From a virus (lineage: Duplodnaviria > Caudoviricetes): 64,000 nucleotides of DNA. The first letter of the stretch is position 1; each line of letters starts with the position of its first letter. Shown here piece after piece: positions 4,192-39,929 of the stretch. The stretch is from positions 192,001 through 256,000 of the IMG/VR virus record IMGVR_UViG_3300042010_000129; one strand, written 5' to 3'. Under the pieces are notes generated by a model. The model worked only from the letters and a program-made list of their open reading frames with translations, ran no database searches and had not been told where the DNA came from. Position numbers and translations under genes: made by a program.

Positions 4192-4999
4192 TTTGTTTTT
4201 CCTGTTGTGCTTTGCGGCGACGGTCGAATTCCGGAATGGAGATTTTGCTACCACGGGCCGAGTGCAATGCCGCCAGACGATCCGACAGCACTTTGTGATC
4301 GTGTTCGACCAGTGCAAAGATTGCATCGTCTTCAGCGTCCCACACGGTGCGTTTGTCGCGTTCTACGAAACGGGTCATGTGGTCAAACTTTGCAGAAGCC
4401 TTCGCCAGATCGTCGGGGGTCATTTCCAATTCACGCACAGGGCCGCTTCCAAAGCCGATTTTGGCGGCGACAGGAACCGGGGCCTTAGCTCCGTTAGGAT
4501 CGTACCGCGCCGAGCCGTCAGAGAGTGCGCAGGCGACGCGATACAGCTGCTTGCCTTTCGTGGTCAGTGCCTTGTAATGCTCACGGGTAAAACCGCTGTG
4601 CGTTCCGGCATACACGCCGAAATAAATCGCCAGCATTTCAATTGCGAAATCGAAATCCTTTTCCTTCAATTTGTTGTAATGCTGGCGAGCGGTTTCCCAA
4701 TCGACGGGATCAAGGCCTTCCGCTTTACGGTCAACGTTAAACGCCCACTGAAAGTCACCGACGCCTTTGTACTGACCGATTTCCGCGAACGCAGTAAAAA
4801 CCGGAACGTCGGATTTCTTTTTCGGGCTGCGGGTAATGCACACCACAACCTTCGTCGCCTGTAAATTCACCGACGCCACAACGTCATTAGAATTAGGGGC
4901 GTAGACTGTGAGGAATTTTTCACCGAACTCCAAATCTTTGGCAAGCGAGAATTTCAGTTTGTGGTTAGGGAACAATGCGCGGGCGTCAGTCTGTTTCAT
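4184..4999 (-). CDS. hypothetical protein
   Basis: 271-aa ORF, AAGGA SD. Confidence 0.8.
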   Translation of the reverse strand: MKQTDARALFPNHKLKFSLAKDLEFGEKFLTVYAPNSNDVVASVNLQATKVVVCITRSPKKKSDVPVFTAFAEIGQYKGVGDFQWAFNVDRKAEGLDPVDWETARQHYNKLKEKDFDFAIEMLAIYFGVYAGTHSGFTREHYKALTTKGKQLYRVACALSDGSARYDPNGAKAPVPVAAKIGFGSGPVRELEMTPDDLAKASAKFDHMTRFVERDKRTVWDAEDDAIFALVEHDHKVLSDRLAALHSARGSKISIPEFDRRRKAQQEKQNG

Positions 5000-38103: not shown

Positions 38104-38137
38104 AAAAAGCCCCTGAATCCAAAAGGAAACAGGGGCC
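38104..38137 (-). terminator. intrinsic terminator
   Basis: GGCCCCTG...CAGGGGC then TTTTT. Confidence 0.75.
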
Positions 38138-38141
38138 ATGG

Positions 38142-38948
38142 TCAAACGTACACCAAAGTTTTTGCAACGAAGTTTTCGAACTTATGCAGCAGTGCGAAAG
38201 TCGCCCAATTGGTCGTGGTGTATACCGCATCACTGGTCAGCATCGCGCCATCGGCCAAGTCAACGGCTTCTGCATCGAGCATCACAATGTTGAATTCCCA
38301 TCCGTTTTTAAACACGGCGAAAATCGGAGCATCTGCAAACGTCGCAGAAACCACAACGCACTTATTCGTCTGGTCGTACCAGCACCCGCTGACCGCAAGG
38401 CCTTCGAGTTCGGAACTGCCTTCAGAAATCAGTGCTTCCACCGGCCCACGGAAAGTTTCCAGCTGATCGCCGTTGTGCAAAACAACACGGAAATCTGTTG
38501 AAGAATTCGTCAGCCAAACATTCCCTTCGCCCACCGTTACAGTGTGCCATTCTGGCCCAATCAAGATCGTTCCCTGATCAGTACCGAACGCAGGGCCACC
38601 GATATTTCTGGCGCAAATAAAATTGCCAGTAAACTCATGAACAAGCGTCCAGTCTTCATCGAGTGCGTAAATCCCCACGCCATCAACACAAGCGTAAAAC
38701 TTGTCTGCGAAAACAACGTGAGAAAACACTAAATCAACATCCATTGGTGTCCATTCGATTTTATCAACCGATTCGAACACACCGGAACCCACTGCAATGT
38801 AACGACCGTTTCCGGAAGCAACAGAAACAATGGACGCCGCAACGGACGCAGGTACGAAACCAGTAGACTGAACGAATAAACCGTTTCCATCATGGTCTGT
38901 ACCTGAACCACCGACAACATACGAACGTCGCGGAACAGGTTTTACGAC
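38142..38948 (-). CDS. beta-propeller-like domain, probably the -1 frameshift extension of 38942..39865
   Basis: Frame stays open 52 codons upstream of the ORF-track GTG (38792) with no start codon; contains SIVSVASGNGRYIAVGSGVFESVDKIEW, and the GTG falls inside this motif. Confidence 0.7.
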   Translation of the reverse strand, partial: VVKPVPRRSYVVGGSGTDHDGNGLFVQSTGFVPASVAASIVSVASGNGRYIAVGSGVFESVDKIEWTPMDVDLVFSHVVFADKFYACVDGVGIYALDEDWTLVHEFTGNFICARNIGGPAFGTDQGTILIGPEWHTVTVGEGNVWLTNSSTDFRVVLHNGDQLETFRGPVEALISEGSSELEGLAVSGCWYDQTNKCVVVSATFADAPIFAVFKNGWEFNIVMLDAEAVDLADGAMLTSDAVYTTTNWATFALLHKFENFVAKTLVYV

Positions 38949-38954
38949 TTTTTT
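38901..38954 (-). other. putative programmed -1 ribosomal frameshift signal
   Basis: In-frame A_AAA_AAG (38954-38948), 7-nt spacer, stem-loop ACCTG...CAGGT (38940-38901). Confidence 0.75.
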
Positions 38955-39865
38955 GCGATTGTCGCCAACACTTCAACCGAAACAGCATCGCCGGTTTGCA
39001 GACGTGGACGCGCTTCCAGTTTCAGAGTGTAGAGGCCCAGCGGCACACCGTCTTCGGTACGTTCAACCGATGCCGGAAGCATGTGGTCGATGTACGGGAA
39101 AGTGTATTGCTGAATCATTTGGGTTACGCGATGGTCAGCATCGGTTGCCGAGTCGCTAACAACGCGAATACCTTGACTGTACCACGTGTAATTTTTGCCT
39201 TTGCCGTCTGGCGTTGGCGTGTTCTGCAAATCCCATTTGACGGGTGCAGCATCGCCGTCCGGATCTACGTCGAGGTAAAGGGAAATGTCGTACATTTCCG
39301 TAATGTCGTTTACGCCTGTCAGCAGCGAACCAGCCGTAACGGCAAAAGTCCAACGCTCGCCCGGTTCCAGTTCGATTTCAAAACCACCAGCGCCATCACC
39401 GAAGTATTCGCTGTTGTTGTATTTACGCACGGCCAAACCGAGTTCGATATTCGCGTTTTTACCAATCACGAAATCATCAGCCGGATTGCCTACGCCTGCC
39501 AGCATGTAATTGACGCCGCCAACTTCACGAACAAAAGTGGTTTCTGCTTTCGGCGTTTCGGTCAGTGGAGCATAAACGATTGCAGCCAGCGGGCCAGTTG
39601 CCGACCACGGGCCGAGGCAGATAAGAACATCACCGAAATAAAACGAAATGATCTTGCCGTCATTGCCTGCTTCGATTTGCGTCAGCACCGGAACTTCGGA
39701 AGAGCCGTAATGGGACGCAACGGTTTTGCGAAATGCGCCCGATTGTACAACCTCTTCCATTTCAGCTTCGGTCAGTTGAATGCGGCGGATCTTCGAGGGA
39801 TCGCCTTTGTCCTGCAAGGCTTCAATAATCTCGGCCCATACGCCCGAGTAGTTCTGGACATTCAT
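38942..39865 (-). CDS. beta-rich protein, possibly virion-associated; short product of the frameshift gene
   Basis: 307 aa, AAGGA SD; ends ATIAKKS at the slippery site. Confidence 0.8.
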   Translation of the reverse strand: MNVQNYSGVWAEIIEALQDKGDPSKIRRIQLTEAEMEEVVQSGAFRKTVASHYGSSEVPVLTQIEAGNDGKIISFYFGDVLICLGPWSATGPLAAIVYAPLTETPKAETTFVREVGGVNYMLAGVGNPADDFVIGKNANIELGLAVRKYNNSEYFGDGAGGFEIELEPGERWTFAVTAGSLLTGVNDITEMYDISLYLDVDPDGDAAPVKWDLQNTPTPDGKGKNYTWYSQGIRVVSDSATDADHRVTQMIQQYTFPYIDHMLPASVERTEDGVPLGLYTLKLEARPRLQTGDAVSVEVLATIAKKS

Positions 39866-39929
39866 TAAAGAATTCCTTTATTGGTGGAAAACATGTGCAA
39901 AACATCTGCACGGAATACCTACCATTAAA

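Follow-up and report, generated by a model that had tools for sequence, protein, structure and literature searches.

The 64,000-nucleotide (nt) stretch of phage DNA analysed here in full (the window; positions 192,001 to 256,000 of IMG/VR record IMGVR_UViG_3300042010_000129) carries, on its minus strand, an open reading frame (ORF) for a protein of 307 amino acids (aa), ORF1, whose last sense codons hold the slippery heptamer A_AAA_AAG and which overlaps a second frame, ORF2, in the –1 register. We conclude that the overlap is the site of a real and conserved frameshift, so far unannotated and canonical in its mechanism, which changes nothing about frameshifting itself. On the comparative evidence the two frames are almost certainly joined by recoding, and the recoding is very probably a programmed –1 ribosomal frameshift of the tandem-slippage type, a reading that, like any estimate of its efficiency, is drawn from sequence. 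The case is carried by direct observations on the signal and how far it is conserved, on its occurrence together with ORF2, on the coding of ORF2 sequence that has no start codon, on an orthologue in which the two halves are fused in frame, and on the folds of both halves.

In DNA and protein searches the window falls next to HRDY3 and Lu11, two jumbo phages of Pseudomonas. Metagenomes of soil, rhizosphere, plant and food origin from 12 studies contain near-identical DNA; no RNA run was found to contain the locus. A literature search found no paper describing this frameshift, and none on HRDY3. The result corrects the annotation of a conserved gene of the Lu11/HRDY3 group and of many soil, rhizosphere and plant-associated relatives, and brings one more well-supported recoding site to jumbo phages, in which few are known.

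The slip site and its conservation

ORF1 ends ATC GCA AAA AAG TCG TAA, with the heptamer in the X_XXY_YYZ register. An earlier, sequence-only reading of this DNA, made by a model that ran no database searches, had called attention to this gene end, to A_AAA_AAG at 38954–38948, to a stem-loop at 38940–38901 beginning 7 nt downstream, and to a –1 frame open for 268 codons as far as 38142, and had proposed that a programmed –1 frameshift yields products of 307 and about 574 aa. Every element lies where it was placed, the stem-loop folds as described, the translation agrees, and the proposal of two products is now supported by the comparison of 19 loci described below. Read from 38954, the –1 frame specifies 270 residues (P0002), of which 268 are new beyond two lysines shared with ORF1; the predicted trans-frame product is thus 306 + 268 = 574 aa, with a junction at which ...TIAKK is followed by VVKPVPR.

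Taken by itself, the heptamer is not above chance, since the window contains 20 copies and 26 are expected. The 40-nt hairpin has a minimum free energy of –16.1 kcal/mol (z = –3.8), and 0/200 shuffled sequences were as stable; an 81-nt fold around the site was no better than its shuffles (z –0.45), so that only the 40-nt hairpin stands out. What exceeds chance is the combination of the frame, the position at the stop codon, a start-less –1 frame of 270 codons, the hairpin and the conservation across 19 loci. The interval from the stop of ORF1 to the first codon at which ORF2 could start contained no terminator-like hit, and both frames should therefore share one transcript. Terminator-like hits between 37500 and 40500 number five, against 4.3 expected by chance, and one of them (38849–38834) lies inside ORF2.

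The comparison covered 19 loci in which both frames are present: the window itself, HRDY3 (L001), Lu11 (L002), IMG/VR contigs L003, L006 and L007, and metagenome or Logan contigs L010–L018 and L023–L026. ORF1 is 306–312 aa long across these loci, and 306–309 aa in all 23 of its homologue clusters. All 19 carry C or T followed by AAAAAAG, in the same register and within the last sense codons of ORF1. The zero-frame stop is TAA in every case, either directly abutting the heptamer (0 nt, in Lu11 and L018) or 3 nt past it. The –1 frame runs across the site for 263–283 codons wherever a contig reaches the ORF2 stop; L010 is a short contig that ends 201 codons into this frame. The codon that precedes AAA is GCA, ACA, GTA or TCA, and so specifies four different amino acids, and its third base is A in 19/19 loci, which is what a tandem slip would need. 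The signal is kept down to 44% identity in ORF1 (L025) and 31% identity in ORF2 (P0032).

A predicted hairpin starts 7 nt past the heptamer in 19/19 loci, with folding energies of –12 to –23 kcal/mol, so that the check proposed in the sequence-only reading, conservation of heptamer and hairpin in related jumbo phages, came out in its favour. In L015, L023, L024 and L025 the stems are formed by other sequences or in other registers. In an alignment of 16 sequences, 94.8% of the cells that should pair do so, compared with 15–53% when the pairing partners are slid against each other. The stretch is also constrained at the nucleotide level. In codon alignments of 14 full-length loci, the synonymous codon entropy at conserved residues was 0.43 bits for ORF2 codons 1–20, as against 1.07–1.15 bits in the rest of ORF2 and 0.94–1.04 bits in ORF1. 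The six lowest of 332 sliding windows over both ORFs all fall on the heptamer–hairpin stretch (resampling p about 1e-5).

The same fusion protein could arise by transcriptional slippage, in which RNA polymerase adds one A within the A6 run of some transcripts and the fusion is then translated normally. Such slippage would be expected to yield the protein that a ribosomal slip yields and to leave the A run just as conserved, and it is the route used by Thermus dnaX (PMC5009743). The run, however, is exactly six A in 19/19 loci, flanked by C or T on one side and G on the other, and is never longer. Productive transcriptional slippage in bacteria generally needs runs of about 8–9. In addition, the invariant G and the X_XXY_YYZ register matter only for tRNA re-pairing, as do the conserved hairpin at its 7-nt spacing and the suppressed synonymous change, and we consider slippage by the polymerase to be quite improbable.

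The split of a 574-aa gene could also be an artefact of an error in sequencing the homopolymer, or a sign of decay, caused by a frameshift mutation of recent origin. One extra A would indeed restore a single frame, and a fused orthologue exists (see below). Nevertheless, the same A6 recurs in 19 independently assembled loci whose synonymous sites have diverged to saturation, contigs from three independent studies (at depths of 8.5, 21 and 300) span the junction with no indel, and both frames are under purifying selection. We regard this explanation as effectively refuted.

For the programmed frameshift that we favour, the likely course of events can be set out from known systems. A_AAA_AAG is the most shift-prone heptamer in Escherichia coli, in which the sole tRNA-Lys pairs weakly with AAG, and the shift has a stimulator in a 3' stem-loop that follows within a few nucleotides (PMC5009743). 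At this locus most ribosomes would read ...GCA AAA AAG TCG and then stop at TAA, producing the 307-aa protein. The hairpin 7 nt downstream, positioned at the mRNA entry channel, would pause some ribosomes with AAA and AAG in the P and A sites, and the two tRNA-Lys could slip back by one base and pair again with AAA AAA. Translation in the –1 frame would append a Pro/Gly-rich flexible linker of ~35 residues and then a beta-propeller of ~230 residues, giving the 574-aa product. E. coli dnaX and the insertion sequences of the IS3 family (such as IS911 and IS150) are alike in using A_AAA_AAG, a 3' stem-loop 6–7 nt downstream and tandem tRNA-Lys slippage on bacterial ribosomes (PMC5009743). The proteins are unrelated to those described here, and the dnaX shift truncates its product whereas this one adds 268 residues. 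A further difference from dnaX is that no upstream stimulator resembling a Shine–Dalgarno (SD) sequence is seen at this locus.

Some observations weigh against a ribosomal slip of this kind. The absence of an SD-like upstream stimulator of the dnaX kind is one of them. Covariation in the hairpin is not significant: with RNAalifold and pair counting on 16 sequences there were 0 double compensatory changes, and the column-shuffle control was not exceeded. The hairpin therefore rests on the folding of each sequence, the fixed spacing and the suppressed synonymous change. The arms of the stem encode Pro (CCN) and Gly (GGN) codons, and the pairing and its conservation could therefore stem in part from the peptide, or the peptide from the RNA. 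Finally, the shiftiness of AAG is conditional on a host with a single tRNA-Lys(UUU); no tRNA gene is present within the 64,000-nt window.

The start-less ORF2 and its natural controls

If ORF2 were a gene in its own right, it should have a start of its own. The sequence-only reading had remarked on the lack of an early start and on a GTG without a good SD sequence; the first ATG, GTG or TTG of the –1 frame in the window is this GTG, at 38792, which lies 162 nt past the slip site and has no SD-like purine run in the 20 nt before it. Among the loci compared, the first such codon falls anywhere from +36 to +267 nt past the slip site, varying by genome, and no ORF2 start is conserved, the first starts being without SD sequences. 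The homologues of ORF2 thus offer no conserved start and SD sequence of their own, and the slip site is retained in all 19.

The sequence that precedes these starts is nevertheless coding, as judged from its evolution. The peptide right after the slip site, KKVVKPVPRRSLVVGGSGT..G.YVQS.GFVPAS, is among the most conserved parts of ORF2. Pairwise ratios of non-synonymous to synonymous substitution rates (dN/dS) were 0.17–0.45 for codons 19–54, which have no start and lie between the hairpin and the window's first –1 frame start, 0.10–0.28 for the rest of ORF2 and 0.10–0.33 for ORF1. By this measure the start-less segment of ORF2 is coding and under purifying selection.

Two kinds of relative serve as natural controls. 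In the 124-kb contig L009, an ORF1 homologue (P0025, 43% identity) is present without ORF2; its gene ends ...GAA CAG CCG TGA, with no heptamer, and is followed by a terminator-like hairpin of –25.6 kcal/mol. In the 115-kb contig L019, a single ORF of 582 aa (P0029) contains both halves in frame. Residues 1–305 of P0029 align with ORF1 (44%, E 1e-78) and residues 305–581 with residues 2–269 of ORF2 (34%, E 2e-39), and the boundary between the two alignments falls exactly on the slip-site Lys-Lys. No slippery heptamer is found in the L019 DNA at the join of the ORF1 and ORF2 parts, and the neighbourhood is syntenic, with a DCD-family gene upstream and a DUF1353 gene downstream. The fused protein is therefore a real and selected product in this family. 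In the sequences compared, the heptamer is present only where a change of frame is needed.

These observations bear on the possibility that the locus comprises two separate genes and that the heptamer is incidental; ribosomes would then enter ORF2 at an internal or non-canonical start, or would reinitiate once past the stop of ORF1. All public annotations call two genes, and in some genomes a GTG or TTG does occur 36–130 nt past the slip site. Against this, the first start wanders from genome to genome and lacks an SD sequence, and the stretch ahead of it, read in the –1 frame, is conserved and evolves under purifying selection. The heptamer is found only where ORF2 is present, and in one orthologue the point at which the two halves are joined in frame is precisely that of the slip site. 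It is very hard to reconcile these facts with an independent ORF2, and we think it most unlikely to be one.

The prediction that gene callers would split and truncate the gene is borne out by the public annotations, which make two genes of it and give ORF2 lengths of 112, 199, 204, 212, 215, 216, 222, 225, 249 and 250 aa. The HRDY3 and Lu11 records need to be re-annotated as a single frameshifted gene. The annotated ORF2 starts of the two phages differ, lying at distinct internal codons (L001:4265–4878 in HRDY3, L002:4031–4720 in Lu11), and in HRDY3 a small antisense ORF (4735–4878) has been annotated across the end of ORF2.

Related jumbo-phage contigs thus contain the gene in three states: with the frameshift, as ORF1 alone followed by a terminator (L009:2501–3500), and as the in-frame 582-aa fusion (L019:4001–5749). 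The ORF1 tree gives no answer as to which of them is ancestral. Together they make up a ready-made natural experiment, in which the frameshift can be set beside the in-frame fusion and ORF1 alone.

Predicted folds and the possible role of the two products

Searches of Pfam and PHROGs returned no match for either half, and P0002 had nothing above the Pfam threshold. The AlphaFold2 model of ORF2, built from a 10-sequence alignment, is all-beta (predicted local distance difference test, pLDDT, 77.5; predicted template modelling score, pTM, 0.77), with residues 1–35 disordered. Foldseek searches of the Protein Data Bank (PDB) and the AlphaFold DB matched it to beta-propellers of WD40 and YCF48 type (E about 1e-5 to 1e-8, template modelling score about 0.6), in keeping with the beta-propeller-like extension that the sequence-only reading had proposed. 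The match of the modelled fold to propellers is generic, and profile scores do not make ORF2 a member of the PSII_BNR, DUF6242 or Beta-prop_HVO_0234 families. By sequence it is weakly related to surface proteins built of multiple repeats, whose propellers are of the DUF6242, PSII_BNR or HVO_0234-like kind and some of which also carry SLH or Por-secretion domains. The models support the view that the extension is an autonomously folded beta-propeller behind a disordered linker.

ORF1 was modelled with a pLDDT of 80.4. Foldseek against the PDB found nothing significant for it, and VIA alignment gave Z values of up to 6.9 against immunoglobulin (Ig)-like domains, these matches being generic. The beta-sandwich of ORF1 is homologous to residues 104–282 of gp9 (768 aa) of Sphingomonas phage PAU, annotated 'capsid decoration protein (banana)'. 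EST35_0383 of phage PA5oct, whose annotation reads 'structural protein, ESI-MS/MS', is a homologue too, and so are 'possible surface proteins' of Yersinia phage fHe-Yen9-04. Scores for this homology were E 7e-11 to 1e-5 in tblastn, hhalign probabilities of 98.5% (PAU gp9) and 98.0% (PA5oct), and E 4.6e-15 in a Foldseek search of BFVD; sequence identity of ORF1 to the PAU and PA5oct proteins is about 28–34%. PAU gp9 has in common with ORF1 not only the Ig-like domain but also a long C-terminal extension after it, of ~490 residues and in frame; the PAU genome yielded nothing that matches ORF2. The PA5oct protein shares the Ig-like domain and has no extension. The PAU capsid shows an unexplained arch of density on the hexamers beside each vertex (PMC5646251), which, going by the GenBank note on gp9, may correspond to that protein. 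In phage PaBG, a stand-alone protein of 93 aa (S5VZG7; KF147891.1 33647–33919) matches ORF1 residues 1–88, in BFVD as well, which suggests that the N-terminal part of ORF1 is an independent module, possibly one that serves as an anchor.

We therefore find it plausible, from remote homology to the PA5oct and PAU proteins, that the ORF1 product is a virion surface protein. Two facts count against this. The gene sits among genes of nucleotide metabolism (its neighbours encode a dCTP deaminase/dUTPase, a DUF1353 protein and a phosphatase) and not in the head module, and the Lu11 and HRDY3 annotations call neither half structural. Because the sandwich is common to virion-associated proteins of other jumbo phages, the likely sense of the frameshift is that it fixes the ratio of plain to propeller-bearing copies of a virion surface protein. 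The carrier would then probably be a capsid decoration protein, presumably located on the virion, and the propeller could act as an exposed binding module for some putative ligand, possibly in the receptor- or carbohydrate-binding role that the sequence-only reading had suggested. With translation setting its copy number, a beta-propeller that is probably exposed at the surface is of interest for the adhesion of large phages to cells or matrices.

Frameshifting is an established means of adding C-terminal extensions to structural proteins, as in gene 10 of T7 and T3 and in phages A2, A118, A500 and PSA, and whether such extension domains are in or out of frame may change from one phage to another (PMC5009743). 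The locus resembles the structural extensions of T7 (10A/10B), T3 (gene 10), Lactobacillus phage A2 and Listeria phages A118, A500 and PSA in that one gene would give a short and a long form, the latter with an extra domain that folds independently and is probably exposed at the surface. The interchange between frameshift and in-frame fusion, documented for Ig-like domain extensions (PMC5009743), has its counterpart in L019. Unlike these cases, the extension here is a whole beta-propeller of ~230 residues on a flexible linker, and not an Ig-like domain or a short tail, and its carrier is a jumbo-phage accessory protein, presumably present in the virion, and not a major capsid or tail protein.

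A more specific proposal makes the frameshift the device that fixes the stoichiometry of an adhesin on the capsid surface: a minority of decoration-protein copies would carry a tethered propeller that binds a glycan of the host or the environment. We hold this to be possible and, on balance, doubtful. Were it true, the propeller would be a binding module borne on the head, with a fold class new to phage decoration proteins, and the gene's three natural states, whether frameshifted, fused in frame or lacking the propeller, would amount to different ways of setting its dosage. A further oddity would be that the conserved P-x-P...G-G-x-G peptide of the linker is retained mainly for encoding the RNA hairpin.

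A different assignment, to the G/GT tail assembly chaperones of lambda type, was rejected: no tape-measure gene follows the gene, its products would have 307 and 574 aa, and ORF1 has no match in PHROGs or Pfam, chaperone families included. The lambda system is alike as a conserved –1 frameshift of tailed phages that makes two products in a fixed ratio; the products here are far larger.

Feature coordinates and other observations

The features of the locus are collected in the table below.

Table. Features of the frameshifted gene and its surroundings in the window (all on the minus strand).
Feature	Position	Strand	Basis or remark
Shine–Dalgarno-like AAGGA	39874..39878	-	8 nt 5' of ORF1 ATG; read from sequence
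ORF1, zero frame, 307 aa (P0001), including TAA stop	38942..39865	-	Sequence and translation; ATG at 39865
ORF1 N-terminal small alpha/beta module, about residues 1–95	39581..39865	-	AlphaFold2 model; PaBG stand-alone homologue
ORF1 Ig-like beta-sandwich, about residues 96–307	38945..39580	-	hhalign, Foldseek, VIA
Slippery heptamer A_AAA_AAG, X_XXY_YYZ register	38948..38954	-	Sequence; identical in 19/19 ORF2-bearing loci
Zero-frame stop TAA	38942..38944	-	One codon past heptamer
Spacer from heptamer to hairpin, 7 nt	38941..38947	-	Equal length in 19/19 loci
Predicted 3' stimulatory hairpin (ACCUG..CCGCGAC / GUCG.GUGG..CAGGU)	38901..38940	-	–16.1 kcal/mol, z –3.8
–1 frame extension, 268 codons plus TGA (TGA 38144–38142)	38142..38948	-	Translation
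Pro/Gly-rich linker, predicted disordered, P0002 residues 1–35; overlaps hairpin-coding stretch	38850..38954	-	pLDDT <50
Predicted beta-propeller domain, P0002 residues about 42–258	38181..38831	-	AlphaFold2 model, Foldseek
Intrinsic terminator-like hairpin and U5, right after ORF2 stop	38104..38137	-	–21.8 kcal/mol, z –5.5

Just upstream of the ORF1 SD sequence, at window positions 39895–39911 on the minus strand, lies a further, short hairpin (GTGCAGATGTTTTGCAC) followed by a T-rich tract. Right after the ORF1 stop, an ORF of 63 codons beginning with ATG occupies 38729–38920 (minus strand) in the frame of ORF1 and overlaps the stimulatory hairpin. It is probably not a gene, to judge from relatives in which this frame is closed or much shorter (9–70 codons).

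The dCTP-deaminase (DCD) gene upstream of ORF1 contains an intein in one Lu11-like Logan contig (L011:1–1052). There Pfam places Intein_splicing between two DCD matches, and the product is at least 608 aa long; in other relatives the DCD protein is plain, at about 245 aa.

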